This document shows positions 3,389 through 60,818 of a stretch of 64,000 nt of DNA, one piece after another. Positions within the stretch are counted from its first letter, which is position 1. Every line of letters begins with the position of its first letter. Below the pieces are notes generated by a model. That model was not told the origin of the DNA. It did no database searches and saw only the letters and a list, made by a program, of their open reading frames with translations. Source of the DNA: an uncultured Eubacteriales bacterium (lineage in GTDB: Bacteria > Acidobacteriota > Aminicenantia > Aminicenantales > Aminicenantaceae). The position numbers and the translations under genes were made by a program. The stretch is taken from contig CAYSQW010000010.1 of assembly GCA_964433135.1 (NCBI GenBank), positions 15,758-79,757 on the forward strand, given 5' to 3'.

Positions 3389-4729
3389 TTAGCCTATCAT
3401 AACGCTTTCTTCAACATACTCATATTTGCCAATCGACCGTTGTCGACTGAACGCATAAAGAAAAGTCAGCGGTCCGATCCGCCCGATGTACATGGTCAGG
3501 ATAATGACGAGCTTGCCGATCAGTCCCAATCGCGGCGTAAGACCCAGCGACAGCCCGACCGTGCCGAAAGCCGAGAAAGCTTCGAACAAAATCTCTTCCA
3601 GAGCCGCTTCGGGATGCGCCAGCACCAGGCAAAAAGAGGAGACCGTAATCACTACGATCGCCAGGGTAACGACCGTAAAAGCCTTGATCGTGAGTTCCCG
3701 CGGCAGTGAACGATAAAACAGGCTGATGGAATCACGCGCCCGCATACTGGAACGCAGAAAAGCCAGGATCACGCCCACGGTGCTGGTTTTCACACCCCCC
3801 CCCGTCGATCCGGAGGATGCTCCGATAAACATCAGGACAATCATAAGAAAAACCGAAGCAAGGCCCAAAGCCCCCAGGTCCATGGTGTTGAAACCAGCGG
3901 TGCGCGCGGTGACGACCTGAAAAAGAGAGGTTAGGATTTTATCCTTCAACGACAGCGTCCGCAGGGAATTTCCCCACTCGATGGCCATGAAGAGGGCACC
4001 CGATCCTCCGATGAGAACGGGGGTTATTACAAGAATCAATTTGCTGTGCAGCGACAGCGCACGTTTCTTCTTCCGCAGCCGACCGCTCAGATTCTTGTTG
4101 ATCTCATGCAGCACGAGAAAACCCAATCCCCCCAGGATGATCAACAGCATCACAATGACATTCACCCGGATATCGTGATTGAAAGATACGAAGCTGTCGC
4201 TGAAAACCGAAAATCCCGCGTTGCAGAACGCGGATATGGAATGAAAAACCGAATTGAATAACGCCCGGCCGTCGGTGAATGTATCTTGCCAGCACAAAAA
4301 CAACGCCAGCGTTCCACACGCTTCGATCACGACGGCATAGATGAAGATATATTTGATCAAAGACTTGAAATTCTTCGGCGTGGAATGATGAAAATTCTCT
4401 TGGACGATGAGGCGCTCCTGGATGGAGATCTTTTTTCCCGCCACCATTAATATGAGAGTGGAGAACGTCATGATCCCCAATCCCCCCAGCTGAAAAAGGA
4501 TCATGATGATGGTCTGGCCGAGCGGGGTGAAATAGGTCGCCGTGTCCTGGACGATCAGCCCGGTCACACAGACCGCCGATGTCGACGTGAAAAACGCATC
4601 GGCGAAAGAAATATGTCCGGATTTCGTACTGAAGGGAAGCCACAGCAGAATGGTTCCGATCAGGATGGCCGCCGCAAAGCTGAAGGCCAGAAACTGGGCC
4701 GGGTGGAAGCGAATATCAACTCTTTTCAT
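3389..4729 (-). CDS. trkH: K+ transporter membrane subunit TrkH/KtrB
   Basis: Polytopic membrane protein with repeated pore-loop motifs (TAGFNT, GTVGLSLG, CNAGFS). Start placed at MKRVDIRFHPAQ (ATG 4729); the track ORF extends to 4804. Confidence 0.85.
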   Translation of the reverse strand: MKRVDIRFHPAQFLAFSFAAAILIGTILLWLPFSTKSGHISFADAFFTSTSAVCVTGLIVQDTATYFTPLGQTIIMILFQLGGLGIMTFSTLILMVAGKKISIQERLIVQENFHHSTPKNFKSLIKYIFIYAVVIEACGTLALFLCWQDTFTDGRALFNSVFHSISAFCNAGFSVFSDSFVSFNHDIRVNVIVMLLIILGGLGFLVLHEINKNLSGRLRKKKRALSLHSKLILVITPVLIGGSGALFMAIEWGNSLRTLSLKDKILTSLFQVVTARTAGFNTMDLGALGLASVFLMIVLMFIGASSGSTGGGVKTSTVGVILAFLRSSMRARDSISLFYRSLPRELTIKAFTVVTLAIVVITVSSFCLVLAHPEAALEEILFEAFSAFGTVGLSLGLTPRLGLIGKLVIILTMYIGRIGPLTFLYAFSRQRSIGKYEYVEESVMIG

Positions 4730-4902
4730 CAGGATGATTCTCTTAACCGCAAGGCTTTCATTCGGGCAGATTCCAACTGTAATCCTTCCTCCTGATTTTG
4801 TCAAACAAGGGGTTGTCGGCAGGCGAATGCAACGAAATCTCTATGCCGCGGTTTAAGTTTTCGGAAACACGCACCGAACCGGGCGGAAGCCCCCGTGTTT
4901 AT

Positions 4903-4931
4903 TTGACAAGAATCCGGGCTTATGCTAATTT
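4903..4931 (+). promoter_or_regulatory. Candidate sigma-70 promoter for the tol-pal operon (TTGACA-17-TAATTT)
   Basis: TTGACA at 4903-4908, 17 nt spacer, TAATTT at 4926-4931, 15 nt upstream of the tolQ ATG. No Shine-Dalgarno in between. Confidence 0.35.
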
Positions 4932-4946
4932 CAATGTTCGAAAACC

Positions 4947-5609
4947 ATGAATCTATTAAATCTAATCACTCAAGCAAGCTACGTTGTAAAATTCGTTCTC
5001 TTGGTACTGCTGTTTTTTTCCGTTTTCTCGTGGGCGATTATCTTCTTCAAACGAAGCGGAATCCGCACCGCCTCCCTACAATCGCGAAGGTTTTTAAAAA
5101 TCTTCCGCAAAAGCCGAAACCTGATGGAGGTCAACGAGGCCGCAAAAAAATTCAGTTCCAGTCCGCAAGCGGCCCTTTTCCAATCCGGATTCAAAGATCT
5201 GGCCTATCTCTCCAAGGGAAATTCTAAGCCGACCTTAAGTCCGGACAATCTGGAGAGCATTAACCGTTCATTGATCAAAGCCTCGAACAAGGAGGTGACC
5301 AAGCTGGAAAAAATGATGAATTTTCTGGCTACGACCGGCGGCGTCACTCCCTTCATCGGCCTCTTTGGAACGGTCTGGGGCATCATGGACTCATTTCACC
5401 AAATCGGCGCGGAGAAATCCGCCAGCCTTGTCACCGTGGCCCCCGGCATCGCCGAAGCGTTGATCGCGACCGCCCTCGGCTTATTCGCGGCCATCCCCGC
5501 CGTTATCGCCTACAACCATTTTCTTCACCGCATCAAGGAGATGGTCTCGGAGATGGAAGACTTTTCCATCGAGTTTCTTAACATCATAGAAAGACTCTAT
5601 GGCATATAA
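4947..5609 (+). CDS. tolQ: TolQ (MotA/TolQ/ExbB proton channel)
   Basis: 220 aa, three TM segments, conserved C-terminal stretch GGVTPFIGLFGTVWGIM...APGIAEALIATALGL. First gene of a tolQRAB-pal-cpoB array. Confidence 0.9.
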   Translation: MNLLNLITQASYVVKFVLLVLLFFSVFSWAIIFFKRSGIRTASLQSRRFLKIFRKSRNLMEVNEAAKKFSSSPQAALFQSGFKDLAYLSKGNSKPTLSPDNLESINRSLIKASNKEVTKLEKMMNFLATTGGVTPFIGLFGTVWGIMDSFHQIGAEKSASLVTVAPGIAEALIATALGLFAAIPAVIAYNHFLHRIKEMVSEMEDFSIEFLNIIERLYGI

Positions 5610-6030
5610 ATTTCGTTCGATCGTCCGCAAAGAAGTGGGGACATCTCTGTCCGAGATAAACGTCACCCCCCTAGTCGACGTTATGCTGGTCATGCTGATC
5701 ATCTTCATGGTCACGGCCCCCATGATGCAGTCAGGCATCGGCGTCAACCTTCCCCAGGCCGAAACGGAATCGGCTCCCGCGGAAGAAGGTTTGACCCTGA
5801 CCATCACCGAAGACCGCTACATCCATATCGGCGATACCGCCATCAATCAGTTTCTGCTTGAGCAAAAACTGAAGGAATATTTTTATGGTAAGGATAAAAA
5901 GATCGTTTTTATCCGAGCGGATGAACGGCTCTCCTACGGCTTTGTGATCACGGTTCTCGATATCATCAAGAAGGCTGAGGTCGAAGTCGTCGGACTTGTG
6001 GCTCAACCGCTGGATAAAAAGCGAAAATAG
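5599..6030 (+). CDS. tolR: TolR (ExbD/TolR family)
   Basis: 143 aa with the motif EINVTPLVDVMLVMLIIFM, which includes the conserved Asp in the TM helix. Overlaps the tolQ end by 11 nt. Confidence 0.9.
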   Translation: MAYKFRSIVRKEVGTSLSEINVTPLVDVMLVMLIIFMVTAPMMQSGIGVNLPQAETESAPAEEGLTLTITEDRYIHIGDTAINQFLLEQKLKEYFYGKDKKIVFIRADERLSYGFVITVLDIIKKAEVEVVGLVAQPLDKKRK

Positions 6031-6032
6031 CG

Positions 6033-6878
6033 ATGGCCGTAATGAGCCGGGACTACCGAGATTTCAAGCGCGGCGTCATCTTTTCCGTATCCGCCCATCT
6101 GGTGCTTATCATCCTGTTGATGATCTCGCCTCACTTTCCCAAAAACTCATCCAAAGGCATGGTCCATTATGTCAATGTCATTTCTTTTCCCGGGGGAGGA
6201 GGCGGATCCGGAGGCGGTGGAATGGGAGGAGCCCCCGGAGGAGGCGGCGGCGGCGGGGAAAAGGCGGTCGCCACTCCTGTCCCCGCCCGGGAACGGCTCA
6301 GCGACCTCACTACGCCGCAAAGACTCATCCAACAGAAACCCGCCAGCATGCGCTTTCCGGTAGAAAGACCGAAGCGCGAGCGCAAACCCCCGGAGGAAAA
6401 GAGAACCGTCATCCAGCGGCGGTCAAACACCCCCGCTTCGGGCAAGGGCACGGAAGAAGGCACTGGAGAGGAAGGTGCTGGAGGTGGAGGCGGTGGAGGC
6501 GGCCTGCGGATGGGCATCGGCGGCAGTGGAGGCGGCGGAGGATGGGGCGGCGGAGGATCATCGTATTCATCTCAGATAGGTCTCTCCTCTTTTCCCTACA
6601 CTTATTACCTCCAGACGATCCATGGGCGCATCTCCAGCAATTGGTTTACATCCCAGGTCCGTGCCGGCGTATCGGGAAAATACCATACCACCGTCTTTTT
6701 CAAGATCACACGAGACGGCCGTATAGACGGATTGAAAATCGAGGAGGGCAGCGGTATCCGGGCCTTGGATTTATCGGCCCGACGGGCCATCGAGTCGTCG
6801 GCTCCCTTCCCCCCGCTGCCCAGAGAATACGAAGACGAATACCTAGGCATACATCTTATTTTCGAGCACACCCCATGA
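6033..6878 (+). CDS. TolA/TonB-family energy transducer with glycine-rich linker
   Basis: N-terminal TM anchor, two long poly-Gly tracts, and a C-terminal TonB_C-like fold (GKYHTTVFFKITRDGRIDGLKIEEGSGIRALDLSARRAIESSAPFPPLP). It occupies the tolA slot between tolR and tolB. Confidence 0.8.
   Translation: MAVMSRDYRDFKRGVIFSVSAHLVLIILLMISPHFPKNSSKGMVHYVNVISFPGGGGGSGGGGMGGAPGGGGGGGEKAVATPVPARERLSDLTTPQRLIQQKPASMRFPVERPKRERKPPEEKRTVIQRRSNTPASGKGTEEGTGEEGAGGGGGGGGLRMGIGGSGGGGGWGGGGSSYSSQIGLSSFPYTYYLQTIHGRISSNWFTSQVRAGVSGKYHTTVFFKITRDGRIDGLKIEEGSGIRALDLSARRAIESSAPFPPLPREYEDEYLGIHLIFEHTP
6192..6560 (+). repeat. GGN-codon low-complexity tracts inside the tolA-like CDS
   Basis: 6192-6257 encodes GGGGGSGGGGMGGAPGGGGGGG. 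About 6471-6560 encodes GAGGGGGGGGLRMGIGGSGGGGGWGGGGS. Confidence 0.9.
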
Positions 6879-8167
6879 AGAACAAAACAACCATCATCTG
6901 GATTTTTCTGCTTTGCGCGTTCGGTCAACAGGCGGTCGCCCAGCAGGAAGTCGTAATGAGCATTAAGGAAGGCATGCCGATCATCCCGGTCGCCGTTCCC
7001 GATTTTGTCATACGAGAAACGGCGCCAAGCCTGAAAAAGGCCGCCGATACCCTGCGGGACGTCATCACGGCCGATCTGAAATACAGCCGTGTTTTCACGA
7101 CGCTCCCATCCAGCTACTACGGGTACATCCGGCCGTTGAATCCGGAGCGTATCTTCTTCAAGGATTGGGAATCGATCCAGGCGAAACTGCTTTTCGTCGG
7201 AGAAGTCGCGACCGCGGGCGGCGAAGATCTTCTCGTCGAGGCAAAAATCTACGATGTCAAGTCCGAAAGATTCATCGTCGGCAAACGCTATCAAACGGAA
7301 AAAGATCTTCTTCGTTTGGTCGCGCATAAAATTTCCAATGAATTCATGAAAATCTATGGAGAGCCCGAGATCTTCACCACGAAAATCATTTTCGTTTCCA
7401 ACCGGGACGAAAACGATGAACTTTACATGATGGACTACGACGGGTACAACCAGACCCGATTGACTTTCAATAAATACAAGGATTACATGCCCTCCTGGTC
7501 GATGGACGGGTCCAAGATCGCCTACACGGTATATCGCGGCGGCCTGACCGGATTATACATGCTGGATGTCTTCGCGGGAAAACGATCGGAAATCTACACG
7601 AAAGGGACCAGTTACGGCGCATCTTTTTCCCCCAACGGGAAAAAGATGGTTTTTTGCTCTACCGGCGACGAGTCGAACGCCGAACTGTATATCGCCGAAA
7701 GCGACGGCTCGCGCTGCAAACGCCTGACTTTCAACAAAGCCATCGATACCGCTCCTTCCTGGTCACCCACCAATCGTGAAATCGCCTTCACGTCCGACCG
7801 AGGAGGTACGCCTCAAATCTATATCATGGATGCCGAAGGATCCAACGTGCGCCGCATGAGCTTCGGAGGCAACTATCACGATGCTCCGGCATGGGCGCCC
7901 ACAGGAGACAGGATCGCCTACGTCTCCCGCGTCTACTCCATATTCGACATCTACATCCTGAATCTGCAGTCGCAACAGATCGTAAAACTCACGGAGAGCA
8001 ATGCCCGCAACGAGTCTCCCTGTTGGTCCCCGGACGGCCGACACCTTATCTTCTCCTCAAACCGAAGCGGAAGCATTCAGCTGTACACCATCGATTATGA
8101 CGGTTCCCATCTCAGACGTCTGACATCTCAGGGTACGAACAAACTTCCCGACTGGTCTCGAAATTGA
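6875..8167 (+). CDS. tolB: TolB periplasmic beta-propeller protein
   Basis: Signal peptide MKNKTTIIWIFLLCAFGQQAVAQQ followed by repeated PxWSPDG-type blades (PSWSMDGSKIAY, FSPNGKKMVF, PSWSPTNREIAF, PAWAPTGDRIAY, PCWSPDGRHLIF). The ATG at 6875 overlaps the tolA-like stop (ATGA). The 5996 start in the track is an artefactual Arg-rich extension. Confidence 0.9.
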   Translation: MKNKTTIIWIFLLCAFGQQAVAQQEVVMSIKEGMPIIPVAVPDFVIRETAPSLKKAADTLRDVITADLKYSRVFTTLPSSYYGYIRPLNPERIFFKDWESIQAKLLFVGEVATAGGEDLLVEAKIYDVKSERFIVGKRYQTEKDLLRLVAHKISNEFMKIYGEPEIFTTKIIFVSNRDENDELYMMDYDGYNQTRLTFNKYKDYMPSWSMDGSKIAYTVYRGGLTGLYMLDVFAGKRSEIYTKGTSYGASFSPNGKKMVFCSTGDESNAELYIAESDGSRCKRLTFNKAIDTAPSWSPTNREIAFTSDRGGTPQIYIMDAEGSNVRRMSFGGNYHDAPAWAPTGDRIAYVSRVYSIFDIYILNLQSQQIVKLTESNARNESPCWSPDGRHLIFSSNRSGSIQLYTIDYDGSHLRRLTSQGTNKLPDWSRN

Positions 8168-49593: not shown

Positions 49594-51957
49594 ATGATTG
49601 TATCAGACAAAGCAAACCAAATCGGTGAATCGCCCACTTTCAAGGTGACCGCCAAAGCCAAGGCGATGAAGGCCGCCGGGATCGATGTTGTCGATCTCAG
49701 CGTCGGAGAGCCTGATTTCCCTACGCCGGCCAACGTAAAAGCCGCCGGAGTCAAAGCCATCGAGGAAAACTTCACCAAATACACGCAGTCTGACGGAATC
49801 CCCCAACTCAAGGATGCCGTCATCACGCGAATGAAGGAAGATTTGGGATTAGAATATCAAAGAAACGAGATTCTCATTTCTTCCGGAGCAAAAAGCTCCC
49901 TGTTCCATCTCGTCCAGTCACTGATCAACGAAGGCGACGAAGTCATCGTGCCCGCCCCTTATTGGGTGACCTATCCTCATGTGGTTTCACTGGCCAAGGG
50001 AAAGTCGGTTTTCGTTCCCACCAAAGAAGAGAACGGATTTCAAATCACTCCCGACCAACTGCGTGCCGCCATCACGCCGGCCACCAAGGCGATCATCCTC
50101 AATAATCCCTCGAATCCCACCGGCGCCGCCTACAAGCGGCACGAACTGGAGGCGCTGGCGGACGTCATCATGGAAGAAGATATCTTCGTGATCGCCGATG
50201 AGATCTACGAAAAGCTCGTTTATGACGATTTTCATTTCGTCAGTTTCGCGGCTCTCGGAGAGGAGATCAAAAAGAGAACCGCCATTATCAACGGCGTGTC
50301 CAAAGCCTATGCCATGACGGGTTGGCGTATCGGTTTCGCGGCCGGACCCGCGGAGATTATCGGCGCCATGTCCCGAATCCAGAGTCACACGACATCCAAC
50401 GCCTGCTCCATCTCACAGAAGGCAAGCCTGGAAGCTCTCCATGGGCCTCAGCATGATATTTCCAAGATGACTTCGGAATTTCAGCGCCGTCGGAACTACG
50501 TCAGCATGCGGCTGCAGTCCATTCCCGACATCTCCTGCTATAAATCTCACGGAGCTTTTTATCTGTTCCCCAATGTCTCCGCCTACTACGAAAAAGAGTT
50601 CAATAATACCCCCTTGAGAAATTCCTACGGGATGGCCTATTACCTGCTTAAAGAAGCTCGGGTCGCCATCGTTCCGGGAGATGCTTTCGGCGCGGACAAA
50701 TACATCCGAATTTCCTATGCCACATCCATGGAAAAGCTGGAAAAAGGCATGGACCGGATCATCGACGGATTAAGCCGCCTGAAAACCGCTAAAAAGGTCA
50801 AACGCGTAAATCTCAACAATACGGTTACCCACCATAAGAAATCGGTTCCCGTGGATTCCGACGTCTCCATCAAAATGCGGGATGCTTTGGTGGCGGAAGT
50901 CGAGAGTCACCTGGGCTATGAAAATTATTTCGAATGGAACGCCAATATCAACGGGGTGATCGTTCAACTTCGAACCAACATCCCTCACCTCTACGATTTT
51001 TGGGTGGAAAACTGGTATCCGGCCCAATTGGAGGCCGACCTGGAACCTCACGGCATCATCTACGCCATAGATCACATAGCGGGTCGGGAACCGCGCGCCT
51101 TCTACAATTCCGAAACCAAAACCGGGATCCTCATCAACACGGATAACTACGCTCCGCTGCGCAGCCTGGCCCTCGGGCTGGTGATGGACGTCTCCGAGCG
51201 ATTGTTCAACGTTCACGCCGTTCGCGGTATGTCGGCCGATATCGATTCTCAGGGAGTCCTCCTGATCGGACCGAAGGGAACAAAAAAAACCGAACTGTTT
51301 TACGGGCTGTTGCTGGAATCTCGTTTCCGCCTTCATGCCAACGACCTCGCTTTCGTTCGTTTTTCCGGCAAGAATGCGTTGGCGGATTCTCCGGAGAGAA
51401 AACTCTTTATGCCCACCAATACGGTGAAAAGCTATTCGGCCTATGCCTCACTGTTTGATTCCAGCAAATGCGAGAACGTCATCACTCGTAAGGAAGATTG
51501 CCAGAACGAAAAATGCCTGCAGGGAGACGACTGCCGTCTGGACCGGGGTTCGCCGTTCTGCTACACCGCGTTGAAAGACAGTTACGCCATGCTCGATCCA
51601 TACTGGATCCGGGGACCGGAAAAACACACCAAACGCACATCGCTGCGCTGGGTATTCATCCTTCGCAACGATAATGTATCCCCGCCCTTCGTGGAGATGG
51701 AGACCGAGGATGCCTTGCGCATTCTCGAATACGGAGAGAGCATCGGCTCGACAAGATCCGTCGGCCCGATGAAAAACAATCCCTTTTTCAATCCTCATCT
51801 CCTGGTTGCAACACCGGAAAGATTGGAGTTCCATCGACAATTTTTCCGTCAGCTGTTGGACAACACCCGGTGCTTCCTTTTCAACAGCGGTGTCGCGGGC
51901 GCCGACGTGCTCAAGAAGATTCTTATCGGAGAAGAGGAGACCGGAAAACGACTTTAG
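49594..51957 (+). CDS. Class I (aspartate-type) aminotransferase fused to a C-terminal degenerate PEPCK/HprK-like P-loop domain
   Basis: aa 1 to about 395: LSVGEPDFPTP, NPSNPTG, and SKAYAMTGWRIGF with the PLP lysine. aa about 400-787 aligns by eye to the neighbouring PEPCK (TDNY/TDYM, VHAV/LHAG, GVLLIGPKGTKKTE/GVFLFGLSATGKST, ENVI) but lacks the KKG lysines and has an atypical Walker A. Confidence 0.8.
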   Translation: MIVSDKANQIGESPTFKVTAKAKAMKAAGIDVVDLSVGEPDFPTPANVKAAGVKAIEENFTKYTQSDGIPQLKDAVITRMKEDLGLEYQRNEILISSGAKSSLFHLVQSLINEGDEVIVPAPYWVTYPHVVSLAKGKSVFVPTKEENGFQITPDQLRAAITPATKAIILNNPSNPTGAAYKRHELEALADVIMEEDIFVIADEIYEKLVYDDFHFVSFAALGEEIKKRTAIINGVSKAYAMTGWRIGFAAGPAEIIGAMSRIQSHTTSNACSISQKASLEALHGPQHDISKMTSEFQRRRNYVSMRLQSIPDISCYKSHGAFYLFPNVSAYYEKEFNNTPLRNSYGMAYYLLKEARVAIVPGDAFGADKYIRISYATSMEKLEKGMDRIIDGLSRLKTAKKVKRVNLNNTVTHHKKSVPVDSDVSIKMRDALVAEVESHLGYENYFEWNANINGVIVQLRTNIPHLYDFWVENWYPAQLEADLEPHGIIYAIDHIAGREPRAFYNSETKTGILINTDNYAPLRSLALGLVMDVSERLFNVHAVRGMSADIDSQGVLLIGPKGTKKTELFYGLLLESRFRLHANDLAFVRFSGKNALADSPERKLFMPTNTVKSYSAYASLFDSSKCENVITRKEDCQNEKCLQGDDCRLDRGSPFCYTALKDSYAMLDPYWIRGPEKHTKRTSLRWVFILRNDNVSPPFVEMETEDALRILEYGESIGSTRSVGPMKNNPFFNPHLLVATPERLEFHRQFFRQLLDNTRCFLFNSGVAGADVLKKILIGEEETGKRL

Positions 51958-52097
51958 CCCGGGATCGGATCGACGCCTCAAACACGGCGGGAGGGCCTGA
52001 CAATATCGGGAGGAATAATGCATAATAATAATTTAAGTCCCTATTTCAGGCCCGATATTATGCCGTGTAAAAAATCCGTATAGAGAGAACGAGACCC

Positions 52098-53933
52098 ATG
52101 AGTACACAAGACATATATAACCTGGACGCATACAAGGACTTTTCCAAAAAGCTTAAGGAGGTTCTTAAAGGCCCCAACATACGGACCGTTGACATGAAAT
52201 GGCTGGAGCCCCGTTCCAAGGCCACCGGCGTTCGGACCAAATACGGGTCCTACGGATGGCGGGCCGCGATCTCCAGCCGGATCGCGCCCAAAACCGTTTA
52301 CCTGGGAAGCGAAGATGTTCGCATGTCCGATCCGACGCCGGTACAGAAATCCATCATCGCCAATGCTCCCCAGGAATTAGAAAAAGTGCTTCATCTGATG
52401 AAAACGCTGCCGTTCGTCCACATCCGCCGCCGGATGGGTGAGAACGACGTATACAATCCGCTCTGCGATCTGTATGTTTCCGAAGCGGACCTGATCAATA
52501 ACCGCCTTGCATATATGTGGGGCACCACCATGTTCAAACCCGGAAAGCGCCCAGGCCCTCAATTCACAATGATCCATATCCCTGAAGAACACCCCCTTAG
52601 GCAGCAGGTTCTGGTCATGCCCGAGCAGAACATCAACATCGCGCTGGGAACGGATTACATGGGAGAGGACAAGAAGGGATTCCTGCGTCAGGCCATGTGG
52701 GCCGCCGACCAGGAAGGGATGCTGGGACTGCATGCCGGCACCAAGATCGTTACGGCCCTCGGGCCCGACAACAAACTCAAAACCTATGGAGTCTTCCTTT
52801 TCGGACTTTCCGCCACCGGGAAGTCCACGTGGTCATGCCACCAGCTTGGTTTGGACTACAAGCGCGGCGAAAAAACCTTGGTCACTCAGGACGATATCTG
52901 CTTTCTTCGCAAAGACGGGTCGGCGTTTGGATCGGAAAACAACTTTTTCGTCAAAACCGATGTCGAACAAAAATACCAGGAAGCGATGTACAACGCGCTG
53001 ATCGATAAGTCGGCCCTGTTCGAAAATGTGATCATCAAATCCAACGGAGAACTCGATTTCCTGGACGAAAGCCTGACCGCCAACGGAAGAGCGGTCCTGC
53101 AACGGCGCAAGCTGCGGGTCAACATCAAGGGACGTATGGTCCCCATCTTTTCCAAATCCATCAATCTTCCTCCCTTGGAAGAGCTCGACGGCTTGGTCTT
53201 CGCTTTTATCACACGCCGCCACACCATCATGAGCTTCGCCCAGGAGCTGACGCCTGAACAGGCGGTCCTGGCTTATCTCTGGGGAGAAAGCACGCACAGC
53301 TATGCCAGCCAGCCGCTCAAGGCGGGAGAGTCGGTACGCATCGTCGGAACCGACCCCTTCATCGTCGGCTCTCGGGCGAAAAAAGTGAACCGCCTTTATG
53401 AGATCATCATGACGCTCGCCAGCAACTATCCTGACAAGCTCAAATGCATGCAGTACAACACAGGGGGCATGGGAGAGATCATCGAAACCCTGGAAGAGAA
53501 CGGCAAACGGAAAAAGCGTCTGGTGCGGAAAGTCGAACGCGTTCCCATCAGCCTGATGGCGCAAATCCAGCGCGGCGACCTCCGGGGAGCCAACCAATAC
53601 GAAAAAGGGAAGCTGGGAACCAGACAGATCGTCAGCGCCGAAGGCAAGTCACTGGATGAATGGGACGCCCGCAAATATTATTCCGACGCCAAGATTCAGG
53701 AATACATCCATGATCTCGTAGAAGGGCGCCGGGAATATACCGAGGAGATCGCGAAGGAAGGCTTGCGGGATGAGGTTCTTTATGCCGCTGAGAGATCCTT
53801 CCGGATTGATCAAACCGCCGGAAAATCTTCGGTCGCGGTTCCGGAAGCACCTTCCGTCGATGAGGAAAAACAGCCGGTCATCTGGAATACGAAATCCCGG
53901 CCTCGACGCGACGGCTTCCGTCGTTCACGCTGA
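52098..53933 (+). CDS. pckA: Phosphoenolpyruvate carboxykinase (ATP), divergent, with C-terminal extension
   Basis: GTDYMGEDKKG...LHAG...FGLSATGKST...TQDD...NGRAVL...YNTGGMG parallels the E. coli PckA motifs as I recall them (GGEMKKG, H232, GLSGTGKTT, GDDEHGW, NTR, NTGWNG). About 70 aa of extra C-terminus end in a basic tail. Confidence 0.85.
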   Translation: MSTQDIYNLDAYKDFSKKLKEVLKGPNIRTVDMKWLEPRSKATGVRTKYGSYGWRAAISSRIAPKTVYLGSEDVRMSDPTPVQKSIIANAPQELEKVLHLMKTLPFVHIRRRMGENDVYNPLCDLYVSEADLINNRLAYMWGTTMFKPGKRPGPQFTMIHIPEEHPLRQQVLVMPEQNINIALGTDYMGEDKKGFLRQAMWAADQEGMLGLHAGTKIVTALGPDNKLKTYGVFLFGLSATGKSTWSCHQLGLDYKRGEKTLVTQDDICFLRKDGSAFGSENNFFVKTDVEQKYQEAMYNALIDKSALFENVIIKSNGELDFLDESLTANGRAVLQRRKLRVNIKGRMVPIFSKSINLPPLEELDGLVFAFITRRHTIMSFAQELTPEQAVLAYLWGESTHSYASQPLKAGESVRIVGTDPFIVGSRAKKVNRLYEIIMTLASNYPDKLKCMQYNTGGMGEIIETLEENGKRKKRLVRKVERVPISLMAQIQRGDLRGANQYEKGKLGTRQIVSAEGKSLDEWDARKYYSDAKIQEYIHDLVEGRREYTEEIAKEGLRDEVLYAAERSFRIDQTAGKSSVAVPEAPSVDEEKQPVIWNTKSRPRRDGFRRSR

Positions 53934-55425: not shown

Positions 55426-55977
55426 TCACGTGCCCGGATCCGATGATCTGGGTCCACGCAGCCAGGATCCGTTCATGTTGATGAGATCATTCTTGAAATC
55501 GGACATGTTTCTCACAATATACCATCCGGAGATCGGATTATTGGGATCGTAAACCCATCCGTCCTCCTCACCGCCGCGTCCCCTCGAAGCGACAATGACA
55601 TCATCCGCTCCGACTTCAGCCGCTTCGATGTCATAAACCCCAGACACAGCCGAGCCCGAGTAAACCAGGAACGAATTCCCCCACTGGTCGCTGATGGGGC
55701 AGCTCTTGATATACACCGGAACAATGGCGGCGGCAAAGACGCTTCCCGCTTGAAGGGCGCCGGCTTGGCTTCCCGAATCAGGCGCCTCTCCGTTATCCGT
55801 GGAGTAATCGACGGCGGCCGTGATGATGCTGATGATATCTTTCATCGTCTGCTTCTGTTTGGCTTTCTGCATGGCGGGGATCGCATTGGGGATAAGCAAT
55901 GCGGCAAGAATTCCGACGATCGCCACAACGATCAGAAGTTCTATCAACGTGAATCCGTTCGGTCTTTTTTTCGGCAT
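55426..55977 (-). CDS. Type IV pilin / pseudopilin paralog 2 (prepilin N-terminal methylation domain)
   Basis: MPKKRPNG-FTLIELLIVVAIVGILAALLIPNA class III signal peptide. Clear paralog of the upstream pilin along its full length, including the C-terminal DFKNDLINMNGSW. Confidence 0.9.
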   Translation of the reverse strand: MPKKRPNGFTLIELLIVVAIVGILAALLIPNAIPAMQKAKQKQTMKDIISIITAAVDYSTDNGEAPDSGSQAGALQAGSVFAAAIVPVYIKSCPISDQWGNSFLVYSGSAVSGVYDIEAAEVGADDVIVASRGRGGEEDGWVYDPNNPISGWYIVRNMSDFKNDLINMNGSWLRGPRSSDPGT

Positions 55978-56011
55978 GGATCTTCCTTGATTTCGTGTTC
56001 TCGGTCAGATT

Positions 56012-56040
56012 AAAAAAAAGGCGGCGCGAAAAGCGCCGCC
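56012..56040 (-). terminator. Rho-independent terminator between the two pilin genes
   Basis: Perfect 8-bp GC stem GGCGGCGC / GCGCCGCC (56020-56027 / 56033-56040) with a 5-nt loop, followed on the minus strand by T8 (56012-56019). It lies 27 nt after the pilin-1 stop. Confidence 0.8.
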
Positions 56041-56066
56041 TTTTCAACCAATGACCTGCGTTCAGA

Positions 56067-56627
56067 TTAAGTGCCGGAAGCAGCCGTCCTCGGCGCATGG
56101 ACCCATGATCCATTCCAGTTGACCAAGTCGTTTTTAAAATCCTCCATGGAATTCACGACATAAAGACCGGCCTCGGGGTTTGTAGCCACAAAAGTATAGG
56201 CTCCATAAGTGCCGCCGCCGTCAACTCCGTCACGTCCTCTAGACGCGATAACGAAATCGTCAACACCGACCATGGCAGCTTGAATACCGTATGCCCCGGC
56301 TACACCCGTTCCCGTGTACACCATAAATTGAGTGCCCCACTGATCGTTGATCGGACAGATTTTGATGTAAAAGGGAGAGATGTCGGTCAGGAATTCATCG
56401 CCGGCTGCGAGTTCCGCAGCCCTTCCTTCCTGCGGAGCTTCCCCATTGTCGGTTGAATAGTCCGCGCATGCGGTCGCGATGGCCACGATGTCTTTCATGG
56501 TTCCTTTCTGTTTCGCTTTCTGCATAGCGGTAATGGCATTAGGGATAAGCAATGCCGCAAGGATTCCGATGATCGCCACAACGATGAGCAGCTCGATCAG
56601 GGTAAAACCTTTTGCTTTCTTTAGCAT
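56067..56627 (-). CDS. pilA: Type IV major pilin candidate (PilA-like), paralog 1
   Basis: MLKKAKG-FTLIELLIVVAIIGILAALLIPNA. Start placed at ATG 56627, where GGAGG lies 5 nt upstream; the track start 56639 would add MEVN. Located immediately downstream of pilS-pilR and a sigma-54 promoter. Confidence 0.88.
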   Translation of the reverse strand: MLKKAKGFTLIELLIVVAIIGILAALLIPNAITAMQKAKQKGTMKDIVAIATACADYSTDNGEAPQEGRAAELAAGDEFLTDISPFYIKICPINDQWGTQFMVYTGTGVAGAYGIQAAMVGVDDFVIASRGRDGVDGGGTYGAYTFVATNPEAGLYVVNSMEDFKNDLVNWNGSWVHAPRTAASGT

Positions 56628-56692
56628 GTTAACCTCCATTAATTTTCCGGCGATTTTTCTACCGGAATCATTTTTAATTCACTTATATAAAA

Positions 56693-56707
56693 GCAATTTA
56701 CATGCCA
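56693..56707 (-). promoter_or_regulatory. Sigma-54 (-24/-12) promoter of the pilin gene
   Basis: The minus strand reads TGGCATGTAAATTGC, versus the consensus TGGCAC-N5-TTGC, with a single mismatch outside the GG/GC cores. It lies about 65 nt upstream of the pilin ATG and downstream of a sigma-54 enhancer-binding regulator gene. Confidence 0.6.
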
Positions 56708-56812
56708 ATCTTTTACAAGCATAAACACCATATAATCAACAACATATAAACATAAGACTTGATTATGTCGCCTTGATTTAACATTTTATCGTACATGAAT
56801 TGCCAATATTTG

Positions 56813-58225
56813 TCACCTGCCTGCCCGTTCCATTCCCGTATCGGCGGTATTCCGGTCCTCGGATTTCAAATCCAGCTTCTCTATCAGGTAGCGCAGCGAC
56901 CTGTAATTGATGCCCAGCATCAAAGCGGTTTTCTTGAGACTGCCCCCTGAATTCTGGAGAGCCTGACGCACAAAATTCCGGGTGAGCTGATCCAGAGTCT
57001 CATTCAGGTTGAAACCGGGTTTGATTTCAACCTCCGATGCCTGAGGCTGGCTGGGTCTGAGCAGTTCTTCCGGCAGGCTTTTCTCGGTTATCGTTTCCCG
57101 CTCTTCGATGGCGACGATCCGCTCCACGACGTTCTCCAACTCGCGCACATTGCCGGGCCATGCGTATGCTTCAAAGATACGAATAACTTCGGGCGCAAGC
57201 CTTTTCATCCTTCGATCCATTTTGGCGCAGTATTTTTCAAGGAAATGCGAGACCAGAAGCGGGATGTCCTCCTTGCGTTTCCGCAGGGGCGGGATCTCCA
57301 GGGAGATGACGTTCAAACGATAGAAAAGGTCTTCCCGGAATATCCCCTCAGCGATCTTCTGCTTCAAATCCTGGTTGGTTGCGGCAATAATACGTACATC
57401 CACGAAAATTTCATCGTTTCCTCCCACCCGCCGGATAGTGCGCTCCTGGAGAGTACGAAGCAGCTTGACTTGAGTCCATGGCGACATCTCCCCGACTTCA
57501 TCCAGAAAAAGCGTGCCTTTTTCCGCCACTTCGAACATGCCTTTCTTATTGGCGATCGCCCCGGTAAAAGAGCCTTTCATGTGTCCGAAAAGCTCGCTCT
57601 CGAGTAGATTTTCCGGAAGCGCACTGCAGTTGAGAGAGACGAAAGCCCGGCCGCGGCGGCGGCTGCTGAGGTAAATCGCCCGGGCCGCCATTTCTTTTCC
57701 CGTCCCGCTTTCACCGGTGATGAGGACGGTGGAATCCGTTACCGCGATCTTATCGATCAGCGCATACAGATCACGCATTACCTTGCTTTTTCCCACCATG
57801 TTTTCATACCGGCTTTTTTCGTCCAATTCCTTTTTCAGATAGAGGTTCTCCTGCTTCAGCCTTCTTTGCTCCATCCCCTGCGCCACAATGATTTTCAATT
57901 CCTCCACGTTGAAGGGTTTGACGACGTAGTCGAGAGCTCCGGCCTTCAAGGCATCGACGGCCTGCTTGATGGTTCCATAGGCCGTAATCATAATAACGGG
58001 AATATCCGGCCTTTTCTTCCTGACGCGCTTAAGAACCTCCATGCCGGAAATCTGAGGGATTTTGATGTCCGTCAAAATCAGATCATAGTCCCCGTTTTTC
58101 TCGAGAGCTTCCAGCGCCTTGGACGAGGACAGAAAAACATCCACATCATATCCTTCTTTTTTAAAGACGACCTCCAGCAAGTCCAAGAGGCTTTTTTCAT
58201 CATCAATCACTAGTATTTTTTCCAT
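56813..58225 (-). CDS. pilR: Sigma-54-dependent response regulator (NtrC family, PilR-like)
   Basis: REC domain (DLILTDIKIP), AAA+ sigma-54 activator (GESGTGKE, GAFTGA-like GSFTGA, ESELFGH) and a C-terminal Fis-type HTH. Confidence 0.88.
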   Translation of the reverse strand: MEKILVIDDEKSLLDLLEVVFKKEGYDVDVFLSSSKALEALEKNGDYDLILTDIKIPQISGMEVLKRVRKKRPDIPVIMITAYGTIKQAVDALKAGALDYVVKPFNVEELKIIVAQGMEQRRLKQENLYLKKELDEKSRYENMVGKSKVMRDLYALIDKIAVTDSTVLITGESGTGKEMAARAIYLSSRRRGRAFVSLNCSALPENLLESELFGHMKGSFTGAIANKKGMFEVAEKGTLFLDEVGEMSPWTQVKLLRTLQERTIRRVGGNDEIFVDVRIIAATNQDLKQKIAEGIFREDLFYRLNVISLEIPPLRKRKEDIPLLVSHFLEKYCAKMDRRMKRLAPEVIRIFEAYAWPGNVRELENVVERIVAIEERETITEKSLPEELLRPSQPQASEVEIKPGFNLNETLDQLTRNFVRQALQNSGGSLKKTALMLGINYRSLRYLIEKLDLKSEDRNTADTGMERAGR

Positions 58226-58246
58226 TAATTTCTCGCTTATTGCTTT

Positions 58247-59503
58247 TCACATAAGACGGGGGAGCGTGATCCTAACTTCCGTTCCCTGACCGGGGACGGA
58301 ATCCACCTTGATCTCACCGCCGTATTCACCGACGATCCTGTGCACAACCGCCATCCCTATACCTTTGCCGTTCTCAAATCCGGTGTAAAAGGTTTTGAAG
58401 ATGTTCTCCCGTTCTTCTTCACTCATCCCGACACCCGTATCCTTGAACCGCATCTCGACTCCTCCCGGCGCATGCTGGATAAAGTCGATGGTCAACACGC
58501 CTCCATCCGGCATGGCTTTGATGGCGTTTTTAAGCAGGTTCCAGTAGATCTGCTTAAACTGATCACGGTTCCCGAAACACTTCAAGCGGGAATTTCTGAA
58601 ATTACCTTCGAGGCGGCACTTTCCATCAAGCTCCCCGCTTCTCTGCAACAAGATGATGGTTTCTTCCAGAACGGGAGAGATCTCAATAGAACTCAGGGTC
58701 TGATCCCCGGGAGAGGCCAGACTGAGAAATTGTTCGATGGAACGGGAAATCCGGGAGGATTCGTTGACGATGATGTCCATAAGCCTCCTCTGCTCGCCTT
58801 CCGGATTCAGCTCGTTTCGAAGGACTTGGACCGAACCGGAGATCGCCGCCAGCGGATTCCGAATCTCATGGGCCAGTTGAGCGGAGACCTCGCCAGCGAC
58901 GGCCAGGTTCTTTTTGACTTCGAGTTCTTTGCTCATTCGCCCCAATTCCGCCCGGGTTTTTTTTAAGCTCCCGGTAAGGAAATTGACCAAAAAAGCAACC
59001 AGAAAAAAAACGGCCCAAGCGATGATGATATTGTTGATAACGCCGGCCAAGGAAATCGACTCGGACATCTCAGAATCTATATAAGGGATGATACCGAAGT
59101 AAAGCCCGTCTACCAGAAGACTGAAAAATACGGCAGAGAAAGAGGCGACCAGGTAAGCGGCTCGCGCGGAGATAACGACGCTGGCGCCGATGATCCCGAA
59201 TATATAGAGGATATAAAAAGAGCCCCGGATGCCCCCCGAGATATAGACCAATGCCGTTATCAGGAAGAGATCGACGATGATTTGAATATATGCCAACAAC
59301 TCATATCGCCGAGAGAAAAAGAACAGAAGGAGATAAACGACCGATACTCCATAAAAAATCAGAACCAGCAGGTAAAAAGTCGTAAGCGGCAGAAATGTGG
59401 CTGTGCTGAACTGGAGTATGATCACCGAAGAAAGGACCAGGGAAGTGACAACGATCAACCTGAGAATAATGAACCAGAGAACGGCTCTTTTTTTCGTTTC
59501 CAT
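58247..59503 (-). CDS. pilS: Sensor histidine kinase with polytopic N-terminus (PilS-like)
   Basis: About six TM helices, an H-box SAQLAHEIRNPLAAI, and N/G boxes (NLLKNAIKAM, DTGVGM, GKGIGM). Confidence 0.82.
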   Translation of the reverse strand: METKKRAVLWFIILRLIVVTSLVLSSVIILQFSTATFLPLTTFYLLVLIFYGVSVVYLLLFFFSRRYELLAYIQIIVDLFLITALVYISGGIRGSFYILYIFGIIGASVVISARAAYLVASFSAVFFSLLVDGLYFGIIPYIDSEMSESISLAGVINNIIIAWAVFFLVAFLVNFLTGSLKKTRAELGRMSKELEVKKNLAVAGEVSAQLAHEIRNPLAAISGSVQVLRNELNPEGEQRRLMDIIVNESSRISRSIEQFLSLASPGDQTLSSIEISPVLEETIILLQRSGELDGKCRLEGNFRNSRLKCFGNRDQFKQIYWNLLKNAIKAMPDGGVLTIDFIQHAPGGVEMRFKDTGVGMSEEERENIFKTFYTGFENGKGIGMAVVHRIVGEYGGEIKVDSVPGQGTEVRITLPRLM

Positions 59504-59615
59504 ATGCCCGTGTTTCTTTCCTTAAATTCTCGTCAACGGCTCGAACAGAGCCTCCATCCGCTCCGCTTTCGGATTGGTTTCTTGATTGTGTTAAGCCGAA
59601 GGAATCCGCGCCCCG

Positions 59616-60818
59616 TCAGAGTTCCGCAAGCAGGCTGAAAATAGGCAGGTACATGGAAACGACGATCGCTCCCACCATCCCTCCGACAAAAATGAGCAGA
59701 ACCGGTTCCAGGACGGAAAGCAGCGCCGAAACGGCGGCCTCGACTTCATCGTCGTAGAAATCAGCCAGTTTCATAAGCATCTCATCGAGAGTTCCGGTCG
59801 CTTCGCCCACTCCGATCATCTGGATCAGCATGAATGGAAAATGTTTGGTTTCCTTGAATGCCTCGGTCAGACTCGAGCCTCCGGCCACGAGGCTCCTGGA
59901 TCGCATGATGTTCTCTTCGACAATCACATTTCCAGAGGTCGAAGAAGTGATCTTAAGGCTTTCCAGCATGGGGACGCCTCCCGACAGCAAGGTGCTCAAC
60001 GTACGGGTGACCCGGGACAAACCGACCTTGGAGAGCAGGCTCCCGAAAAGAGGCACTTTGAGCAGAATCCGATCCACGACTTTTCTCCCGTATTCAGTAC
60101 GCCGGAAGTACCTGAAACCGACGACCAAGACGATAGCACCGACCACTATCAGCAACATATAGTTCTGAAGAAAACGGGAAAGGGCCATAATGAATGCCGT
60201 CAGAGCGGGCAGAGTTGCGCCCAATTCAATGAAAATCCCGGCAAAGACCGGAATGACCTTCCACAGCATGAAGATGCATACAAGAATGGAGAACCCCACG
60301 ATGACCGAGGGGTAAACCATGGCTTGGCGGACCTGCGACCGCAGTTTGACGATGCTTTCTAAGAATTCCGCAAGCCGACGCAACATGATATCCAATGATC
60401 CGCTCTGCTCTCCAGATGCCACCAGATTGCAGTACAGGTCATCGAATACTCTTGGGAATTTTCTTTTCGCCTGATTGAGCGTGGAACCGGCCTCAACATC
60501 TTCGCGGACATCCTGAATCACCTGTTTGAAATACTTGTTTTTCGTCTGCTCCGAAAGGATGTTCAAACTTTGGATCAGGGGCAGCTCGGCATCTATGAGA
60601 ACGGACAACTGGCGGCTGTAAACAGCCAGTTCCTTTGCCTTGACCTTCTGCCGCGTCAAAAAAGGGATTTTTAATTCGGCCCCTTTTCGGGTGATTTCCT
60701 CGACCGATATCTGTTCTCTTTGAAGACTTTGGGCAAGGCCATCCTCGTCCCGGGCGACCCGGCGCCCTTCAACGGAATCGCCATAACGATTTTTCCCTTT
60801 CCAAAAATAAACCGGCAT
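59616..60818 (-). CDS. pilC: Type IV pilus assembly platform protein PilC (GspF family)
   Basis: 400 aa with a duplicated GspF domain and three TM segments. Located between pilT and pilS. Confidence 0.88.
   Translation of the reverse strand: MPVYFWKGKNRYGDSVEGRRVARDEDGLAQSLQREQISVEEITRKGAELKIPFLTRQKVKAKELAVYSRQLSVLIDAELPLIQSLNILSEQTKNKYFKQVIQDVREDVEAGSTLNQAKRKFPRVFDDLYCNLVASGEQSGSLDIMLRRLAEFLESIVKLRSQVRQAMVYPSVIVGFSILVCIFMLWKVIPVFAGIFIELGATLPALTAFIMALSRFLQNYMLLIVVGAIVLVVGFRYFRRTEYGRKVVDRILLKVPLFGSLLSKVGLSRVTRTLSTLLSGGVPMLESLKITSSTSGNVIVEENIMRSRSLVAGGSSLTEAFKETKHFPFMLIQMIGVGEATGTLDEMLMKLADFYDDEVEAAVSALLSVLEPVLLIFVGGMVGAIVVSMYLPIFSLLAEL

Follow-up and report, generated by a model that had tools for sequence, protein, structure and literature searches.

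A conserved aminotransferase fused to a predicted, partly degenerate PEP carboxykinase-fold domain and encoded beside an ATP-type PEP carboxykinase in Aminicenantes

Aspartate aminotransferase (AspAT) interconverts aspartate and oxaloacetate, and AspAT enzymes are dimers. The known class Ib aspartate/prephenate aminotransferases, such as those of Phormidium (1J32), Sinorhizobium (AatA/AatB, 6F77/6F35) and Arabidopsis (PAT, 5WMH), stop at about residue 400. ATP-type phosphoenolpyruvate (PEP) carboxykinases (ATP-PEPCKs; PckA, PF01293; E. coli 1AQ2/1OEN, Thermus 1J3B/1XKV) are proteins of 530-610 amino acids (aa). Here we describe a 787-aa open reading frame (ORF) in which an aminotransferase of the former type is continued, in the same frame, by a domain that is predicted to have the PEPCK fold, followed directly by a gene for a predicted ATP-PEPCK. 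The locus lies in a stretch of 64,000 nucleotides (nt), called the window below, of contig CAYSQW010000010.1 from an uncultured bacterium of the Aminicenantaceae (assembly GCA_964433135.1). Both ORFs are present as an initial annotation of this DNA had listed them, and that annotation had read the C-terminal half of the fusion as a dead PEPCK paralogue coupling the two enzymes.

The N-terminal half looks like a complete and fully functional class Ib aspartate, possibly also prephenate, aminotransferase. This follows from the Pfam Aminotran_1_2 match (PF00155, E 1.1e-76, profile positions 2-361 of 361), from the match of the first 399 residues to the class Ib structures 8wkj, 1j32, 6f35, 6f77 and 5wmh (E 1e-103 to 1e-109) and from the presence of the pyridoxal phosphate (PLP)-binding lysine and the class motifs. 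The motifs that the initial annotation had noted in the first approximately 395 aa are indeed found there, GEPDFPTP (aa 38-45), NPSNPTG (aa 171-177) and SKAYAMTGWRIGF (aa 236-248), and DEIY occurs at aa 202-205, so that S-K-x-x-x-M-T-G-W-R, NPxNPTG and D-E-x-Y are all present. K237 in SKAYAMTGWRIGF aligns with the equivalent SKAYAMTGWRIG of 8wkj, a structure to which this half is about half identical over its full length and with which it shares the PLP lysine and the class I motifs. The closest solved structures include bifunctional prephenate aminotransferases, and the best NCBIfam model is NF004769 (aspartate transaminase; 437 bits, under the cutoff of 617). None of the matched structures carries the C-terminal extension.

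Sequence searches with the C-terminal half find little. Pfam gives no family at E <= 1, a PDB search with the half as a single sequence gives no match, and the family profile run against the PDB retrieves only aminotransferase tails and marginal HprK chains (E 0.055-0.11). Two library models respond below their cutoffs, the PEPCK subfamily NF006821 of NCBIfam (E 5e-5, 22 bits; cutoff 369) and the HprK model TIGR00679 (E 0.012, 14.9 bits; cutoff 240), and these weak signals agree in direction. Direct comparison with the neighbouring PEPCK is more telling: BLASTP aligns the two with E 0.008 and reproduces the blocks that had been matched by eye, the Smith-Waterman score is 66 against 37.1 +/- 4.9 for shuffled sequences (n=1000, z = 5.8, 0/1000 reaching 66), and a profile-profile comparison (hhalign) of 34 homologues of the domain with E. 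coli PckA and the neighbour's family gives E 2.5e-6. The AlphaFold2 model of the domain, built on the family alignment, has a mean local confidence (pLDDT) of 87.7 and a global template-modelling confidence (pTM) of 0.86. Foldseek with this model places ATP-PEPCKs at ranks 1-35 (E 1e-17 to 5e-15, TM on the query 0.67-0.76), with 1oen, 1xkv and 1j3b as the best matches (E 1.4e-17, TM on the query 0.74-0.76); GTP-PEPCKs rank after them, and all 50 listed matches are PEPCKs, HprK not being among these. Because the Foldseek search, hhalign and the Smith-Waterman test agree, the fold match being decisive, we conclude from the model that the C-terminal half is a PEPCK-fold domain, and the resemblance to the neighbouring PEPCK that the initial annotation proposed is borne out. 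With about 370 aa against the 530-610 of PEPCK, the domain would lack part of the PEPCK N-terminal domain and the region C-terminal to the NTG motif. The model of the full-length fusion reaches pLDDT 83.9 and a pTM of only 0.53, and the relative placement of the domains in it is undefined. A rigid intramolecular interface between the two halves is thus unsupported, and in this model they appear to be flexibly tethered.

The domain has many relatives. A profile search over 1.8 billion representative proteins returned 358 clusters (50% identity), many of them stand-alone proteins of 350-460 aa, and the window domain is a member of a separate, wide and so far unannotated mini-PEPCK family, a branch of the PEPCK/HprK P-loop fold. 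It is therefore not a recent duplicate of the neighbouring gene. Ten of the 16 stand-alone proteins examined have all catalytic-type features (YYGQxKS, IHSIHG, APTGTGKST, HSDDW, SERxFYLRT and NSRAMLDP) and on these motifs look catalytically active; the other 6/16 are fully degenerate. NF006821 is again the best library match of the stand-alone members, with E 1e-11 to 1e-18. Stand-alone members of 360-460 aa (P0245, P0246, P0252, P0257, P0263, P0281, P0293) come from both archaea and bacteria and are annotated as 'hypothetical protein'. One further stand-alone member, P0316 (754 aa), has its P-loop interrupted between GTGK and ST by an intein (Pfam Intein_splicing, E 1.5e-16), a kind of element usually located at motifs essential for function. 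Three stand-alone gene contexts (L094-L096) showed no common theme, the neighbours being a radical SAM/B12-like gene, a peptidase M3 gene and PanC.

The active-site region was compared in 151 non-redundant fused domains and 16 stand-alone domains (Table 1). The fused domains comprise group A (n=104), at least 60% identical to the window protein and essentially from Aminicenantes, and the more distant group B (n=47).

Table 1. Residues of the fused domain at positions aligned to E. coli PckA
E. coli PckA	Window	Group A	Group B
Y207	Y519	conserved	conserved
K212/K213	R523	basic	basic
H232	R544	R 104/104	H 14, R 29
G253	K564	K/R/N/S/Q, never G	G 41/47
K254	K565	K 104/104	K 40, R 7
T255	T566	T/S 104/104	S 13, T 10, other 24
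D268	N583	N 98/104	D 14
D269	D584	D 95, E 9	D 46, E 1
K288	P607	P 94	R or K 25
R333	Y664	H/Y/F mostly	R 35

The window domain fails the test for PEPCK catalytic residues (H232, D268, K288, R333 and a Walker-A GxxGxGK[ST]), having R544, N583, P607, Y664 and GPKGTKKT at these places; about five of the eight residues of a catalytic signature are lost, and what replaces them is fixed or almost fixed across group A. The deviant Walker A with Lys for the second Gly and the change from DD to ND (N583 and D584) had both been read correctly in the initial annotation, the former with its coordinates. The loss of the metal/substrate lysines (YAPLRS) is not a simple one, a basic residue (R523) occupying the site in 150/151 fused members. 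Other positions are strictly kept. The ENV motif (E627-N628) is found in all groups, and Y519, R523, D584, E601, R602, E627 and N628 are conserved throughout, while a further set is invariant in fused members only (E447, W448, N449, N451, Q458, R460, H465, D468, E472, P476, E484-P485-H486, G497-R498-E499, K603, S624-K625, D668-P669, W671 and H735). On the 8-point catalytic signature, the ten canonical stand-alone members score 8 and group A scores 3.0, with about 3.0 both when a PEPCK neighbour is present and when it is absent; group B has a mean of 5.4 without a nearby PEPCK (13 members at 7) and of 4.1 with one, a trend that is not corrected for shared ancestry. By these residues, the window domain is not a decaying copy. 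It is a fixed, strongly constrained and partly degenerate one that likely no longer performs PEPCK chemistry. It probably still binds a phosphate-bearing ligand, because the P-loop Lys/Thr and the equivalent of Asp269 are fixed in 104/104 close relatives. 'Catalytically dead', as the domain had been called, is hence apt in all likelihood for PEPCK chemistry and says too much about ligand binding. Failing the profile thresholds and the catalytic residues of PEPCK as well as the thresholds of HprK, the C-terminal half is best classed, on sequence, as an unnamed sister family.

The cysteine cluster proposed for this region lies at nt 51469-51561, as annotated, and is inserted relative to PEPCK. 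Among fused members, C636, C641, C647 and C656 are kept in 104/104 close and 46-47/47 distant ones, and among stand-alone members in 11/16. Conservation in both fused and stand-alone members indicates that this four-cysteine (Cys4) insertion is ancestral to the mini-PEPCK family and predates the fusion, rather than having been acquired with it, so that four of the five annotated cysteines are not specific to the lineage. An earlier idea that the cluster is confined to Aminicenantes was rejected by the larger set, in which Cys4 is missing only from a Zixibacteria subclade. The insertion is a lower-confidence part of the AlphaFold2 model and would most simply form a structural Zn(Cys)4 or Fe-S site.

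Which partner the domain may serve is suggested by its gene neighbourhood. Across group A, a PEPCK gene is adjacent downstream of the fusion in 83 loci, farther downstream in 1, absent in 13 and undetermined in 7 (84/97 = 87%); in relatives the spacer is often 5-80 nt, or the genes overlap. Twelve group B loci have a PEPCK gene within 5 kb: it lies downstream in 4 of them, upstream in divergent orientation in 5, and upstream on the strand of the fusion in 3. In a further 13 distant loci, where only the downstream side could be checked, no PEPCK gene was found on that side. L001 and 12 other close relatives have no PEPCK gene between the fusion and a SIS-domain gene.

The domain also meets PEPCK where no aminotransferase is involved. 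In P0255 (899 aa; L091 6001-8700, on three contigs) a mini-domain is fused N-terminally to a full PEPCK. It is 30% identical to that of the window (E 2e-50) and shares the R544 / N-D / ERK / Y664 signature; its P-loop is dead and it has no Cys4. An Asgard archaeon is suggested as the source by the neighbouring genes (gelsolin-like and Roadblock/V4R) and by the nearest named relative, which is from Jordarchaeaceae. In P0386 (L180 4148-5491), from a bacterial metagenome-assembled genome, the same degenerate domain runs into the start of a PEPCK, and in L179 (263-2901) the gene of a 341-aa mini-domain overlaps by 4 nt a PEPCK gene whose product is 40% identical to the window PEPCK. Neither an aminotransferase nor a flotillin gene is found near the mini-domains of P0255, P0386 or L179. 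The link between the domain and PEPCK thus occurs in four independent forms, as downstream neighbour, upstream neighbour, fusion and overlapping gene. Together with the genomic context, P0255, P0386 and L179 are the strongest available evidence for PEPCK as the partner of the domain. The functional tie to PEPCK that the initial annotation suggested gains support from the adjacency in 84/97 close loci, the 8 distant loci with PEPCK upstream, the P0255 and P0386 fusions and the L179 overlap; what carries it is genomic context.

We propose, with confidence about evenly divided, that the domain couples the aminotransferase to PEPCK, serving without catalysis as a docking or ligand-sensing module. 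The pseudoenzyme domain would bind a phosphate-containing ligand and/or dock onto the ATP-PEPCK encoded next door, and transamination between aspartate and oxaloacetate would thereby be tied to the conversion between oxaloacetate and PEP, the labile oxaloacetate being passed on or the two activities being co-regulated. Flux might run in the gluconeogenic direction from amino acids, or by PEP carboxylation with a gain of ATP followed by aspartate synthesis; both directions would be compatible with an anaerobic fermenter. Since AspAT enzymes are dimers, the unit could consist of two aminotransferase-domain chains, each holding one PEPCK, and the flotillin encoded directly upstream may localise or scaffold it at the membrane. 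A bolder version, which we regard as very unlikely, has flotillin, fusion and ATP-PEPCK forming a membrane-scaffolded metabolon that channels oxaloacetate between aspartate and PEP, with a pseudoenzyme derived from an active mini-PEPCK kinase as the glue and Cys4 as a metal/redox switch. If true, it would be a first instance of central carbon/nitrogen metabolism being organised by a bacterial flotillin.

Several observations weigh against a docking or sensing module that serves PEPCK. The most constant neighbour of the fusion is flotillin, not PEPCK; 13 close loci have no PEPCK beside the fusion, and 12 group B loci, checked in full, have none within 5 kb. The full-length model does not place the two domains confidently. 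Many distant fused members score 7/8 on the catalytic signature, which means that the family cannot be called one of pseudoenzymes throughout. The strict retention of the P-loop Lys/Thr and of the Asp could also indicate residual catalysis instead of mere binding. The equivalences to E. coli PEPCK residues, moreover, derive from sequence and profile alignment and not from structural superposition.

Three of the other explanations, which are not mutually exclusive with docking, bear on the same data. Among them the one that survives best, unlikely as we judge it, is that the C-domain is a cis-acting allosteric sensor of the aminotransferase that uses the retained P-loop Lys/Thr and Asp584 to bind a nucleotide, PEP, oxaloacetate or phosphate and does not bind PEPCK, whose neighbourhood would then reflect only the shared regulation of a pathway. 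The fixation of the P-loop Lys/Thr and Asp584 in 104/104 close relatives agrees with this, as do the constancy of the fusion to the aminotransferase domain while the position of PEPCK varies and the at least 12 distant and 13 close loci in which the fusion has no PEPCK gene within 5 kb. The occurrence of the degenerate domain with PEPCK and without aminotransferase in P0255, P0386 and L179 argues the other way, and so do the want of a confident intramolecular interface (pTM 0.53) and the probable position of the adenine-holding part of PEPCK beyond the end of the domain.

Quite unlikely, in our view, is a C-domain that has kept enzyme activity at an unusual active site, acting as a minimal carboxykinase, as a kinase or as an oxaloacetate decarboxylase; this would make the protein truly bifunctional, taking for example aspartate to oxaloacetate and on to PEP or pyruvate. 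The full catalytic signature in 10/16 stand-alone relatives, one stand-alone protein having the P-loop intein, the 13 distant fused members at 7/8 and the conservation throughout of Y519, R523, D584, E601, R602, E627 and N628 are what such an enzyme would lead one to expect. In the clade of the window, however, other residues, fixed or nearly so, stand at the positions equivalent to the Mn ligand H232, the Walker-A glycine, D268, K288 and R333, a full PEPCK is encoded next door, and the signature of distant fused members is lower near a PEPCK (4.1 vs 5.4, not corrected for phylogeny).

We see only a slight chance that the C-domain serves mainly to recruit the aminotransferase to membrane flotillin assemblies, the link to PEPCK being secondary. 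Flotillin, a neighbour that the initial annotation did not mention, is encoded directly upstream of the fusion in 110/116 loci, namely 85/85 in group A (median gap 29 nt) and 25/31 in group B, counting loci that have enough sequence, and elsewhere within the locus in 4 more of group B; the block of residues that is invariant only in the fused, that is, flotillin-linked members fits the same explanation. Against it, no flotillin gene lies near the PEPCK-linked P0255 and L179, no flotillin-binding element is evident in the sequence, and the literature searched holds no precedent.

That the long ORF is an artefact of assembly or sequencing joining two separate genes has practically no chance of being right and is already refuted: the halves of L001 and L047 were in different frames in the first survey, yet the break in L001 is within the aminotransferase domain with the frame from its end into the C-domain unbroken, 13 contigs from independent samples and assemblers carry the 787-aa ORF in identical form between the same neighbours, and aminotransferase and C-domain share a single frame in 149/150 non-redundant related loci from many samples and assemblers. 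Base composition is uniform over the fusion and PEPCK ORFs, with no sign of a join. The reading of L001 as two separate genes was rejected accordingly; the frameshift that splits the gene call in two there (4724-7065) may be a long-read indel error or mark a pseudogene. An apparent 1404-aa triple fusion of aminotransferase, mini-PEPCK and PEPCK in L133 was likewise rejected, a stop lying at 6122 and the PEPCK start at 6129. On the Zixibacteria chromosome CP070796.1, the gene at L002 6003-7577 has only the last approximately 135 aa of the aminotransferase domain before the C-domain. It follows a Der GTPase gene and precedes ndk, without flotillin or PEPCK nearby, and may be a copy that was truncated or remodelled; the chromosome is reported to encode a second related protein, P0086.

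In a scan of one genome per GTDB species, relatives were found in 421 species, the best 80 all being Aminicenantes, and a metagenome scan seeded with distant members added 80 further loci. By source name, fused members come from Aminicenantes/Acidobacteriota, Zixibacteria, Calditrichota and candidate division CSSED10-310. NCBI labels the full-length proteins just 'pyridoxal phosphate-dependent aminotransferase'. A suspected absence of full-length fusions from public data was rejected, since they are present on contigs: a homologue search with the 387-aa domain listed only fragments of up to 663 aa, whereas the collection searched does contain complete proteins of 780-830 aa. Targets of which the query covers less than about half seem to go unlisted in that search, and surveys at domain level could be misled by this.

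The layout of the locus is given in Table 2.

Table 2. Features of the fusion locus and its neighbours in the window
Feature	Position (nt)	Strand	Basis or remark
Fusion ORF, aminotransferase and mini-PEPCK domain, 787 aa	49594..51957	+	ORF listing
Flotillin-like gene, 469 aa	48163..49572	+	Pfam Band_7 and Flot
Class I/II aminotransferase domain, aa 31-389, class Ib aspartate/prephenate type	49684..50760	+	PF00155
SKAYAMTGWRIGF motif with PLP-binding lysine K237	50299..50337 (K237 codon 50302-50304)	+	alignment to 8wkj
Interdomain linker, about aa 390-425	50761..50868	+	pLDDT dip at aa 401-404
Predicted mini-PEPCK (PEPCK-fold) domain, about aa 426-787	50869..51954	+	AlphaFold2, Foldseek, hhalign
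EWNANINGVIVQLRTN, start of the block invariant in fused members only	50932..50979	+	residue table
Deviant P-loop GPKGTKKTE	51268..51294	+	K564 for Walker-A Gly; K565 and T566 kept
HANDL, kinase-2-like motif	51334..51348	+	D268 -> N583; D269 equivalent D584 kept
Cys4 cluster C636-x4-C641-x5-C647-x8-C656	51499..51561	+	inserted relative to PEPCK
C626, fifth Cys, specific to fused members	51469-51471	+	residue comparison
Spacer between fusion and PEPCK genes, 140 nt	51958..52097	+	between ORFs
ATP-type PEP carboxykinase, 611 aa, divergent NF006821-like subfamily (predicted)	52098..53933	+	PF01293

The flotillin-like gene, which ends 21 nt before the fusion, encodes an N-terminal membrane helix followed by SPFH/Band_7 (PF01145, E 6e-26, 92.1 bits, cutoff 23.6) and Flot (PF15975, E 1e-8, 35.6 bits, cutoff 27) domains. 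In the spacer on the other side of the fusion there is no terminator-like site on the + strand, and one promoter-like match is not above chance.

The neighbouring PEPCK matches PF01293 with E 3e-26 (92.4 bits, gathering score 26.5); it scores 282.7 bits with NF006821, whose cutoff of 369 is not reached, and 30-47 bits with the equivalog models. Alignment to E. coli PckA confirms that it keeps the ATP-PEPCK catalytic motifs ascribed to it, with equivalents of the R65 region, Y207, K212, K213, H232, the P-loop K254, D268/D269, R333 and NTG, in the motifs SSRIAPK, GTDYMGEDKKG, LHAG, GLSATGKST, QDDICF, ANGRAV and NTGGMG. On these residues it is an ATP-PEPCK of a divergent subfamily and is predicted to be active. 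It has more than 1353 homologues, the named ones from Aminicenantes/Acidobacteriota. The C-terminal approximately 70 aa form an extension that E. coli PckA does not have, ending in a basic tail, KSRPRRDGFRRSR, that is kept across the aligned relatives.

Farther downstream, on the - strand, the window contains a tandem pair of prepilin-type genes (N_methyl domain; 55426-55977 and 56067-56639), followed by a sigma-54 response regulator gene (56813-58225), a PilS-like histidine kinase gene (58247-59503) and an ORF at 59616-60818 that is a PilC-like candidate by eye. The region 55426-60818 looks like a type IV pilus/pseudopilus regulatory cluster adjoining the locus.

The fusion exposes a gap in annotation, as half of each fusion protein and the whole mini-PEPCK family (358 clusters) are unannotated. 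The family offers a natural series within one fold, from active-looking stand-alone proteins through fused ones with most of the catalytic residues to the fixed degenerate domain with a full PEPCK, and this series is a testable model of an enzyme turning into a pseudoenzyme partner. The locus suggests that abundant uncultured bacteria of sediments (Aminicenantes, Zixibacteria, Calditrichota) handle oxaloacetate in an organised way at the aspartate/PEP node, and it provides, in the fusion protein, a specific and conserved candidate for a client of a bacterial flotillin. It should be of interest for research on pseudoenzymes, metabolic channelling and bacterial flotillins.

Compared with ATP-PEPCK, the fused domain has a similar overall fold (Foldseek E 1e-17, TM 0.75) and the same order of motifs, from the Tyr207 region through the His region, P-loop, kinase-2 Asp and ENV to an NTG-like motif, with the equivalents of Y207, K254, T255, D269 and E311-N312 kept. 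It differs by its length of about 370 aa, by the apparent loss of the adenine-binding C-terminal part and part of the N-terminal domain, by the Cys4 insertion, the fused aminotransferase and the absence of a Pfam match, and by the substitutions H232 -> R, G253 -> K, D268 -> N, K288 -> P and R333 -> Y. The C-terminal domain of HprK and the HprK-related kinases (PF07475, TIGR00679, TIGR04352, ScmC PF27840) belong to the same P-loop superfamily. Locally they show a comparable His-x-G...G-x-G-V-L-I-x-G-x-x-G-x-G-K-S-E stretch and a following Asp motif, including the Glu that trails the P-loop; this kinship is marginal (E 0.012-0.1, far under the cutoffs), and HprK lacks the PEPCK-type N-terminal sub-domain that the fused domain has. 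The stand-alone mini-PEPCKs (e.g. P0245, P0246, P0252, P0263) are the same domain end to end, share NF006821 as the best library match and have the Cys4 insertion in 11/16. They differ from the fused domain in the full catalytic signature of 10/16 (APTGTGKST, IHG, DD, RT, R), in not having the fused-specific invariant block, and in having, in three gene contexts, no link to an aminotransferase, a flotillin or a PEPCK.

In keeping with the initial annotation, which knew of no example, the AspAT-PEPCK-like fusion architecture is not described in Pfam, NCBIfam, the PDB or the literature searched, nor is there in these sources a pseudoenzyme or gene-fusion case that joins AspAT, a PEPCK-like pseudo-domain, PEPCK and flotillin. 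Two general concepts come close to the arrangement, that of pseudoenzyme paralogues partnering active enzymes and that of gene-fusion ('Rosetta stone') links between pathway neighbours. As in the former, a degenerate, paralogue-like domain stands here beside a family member that is predicted to be active; as in the latter, it is fused to an enzyme that would handle the metabolite shared by both activities, oxaloacetate.

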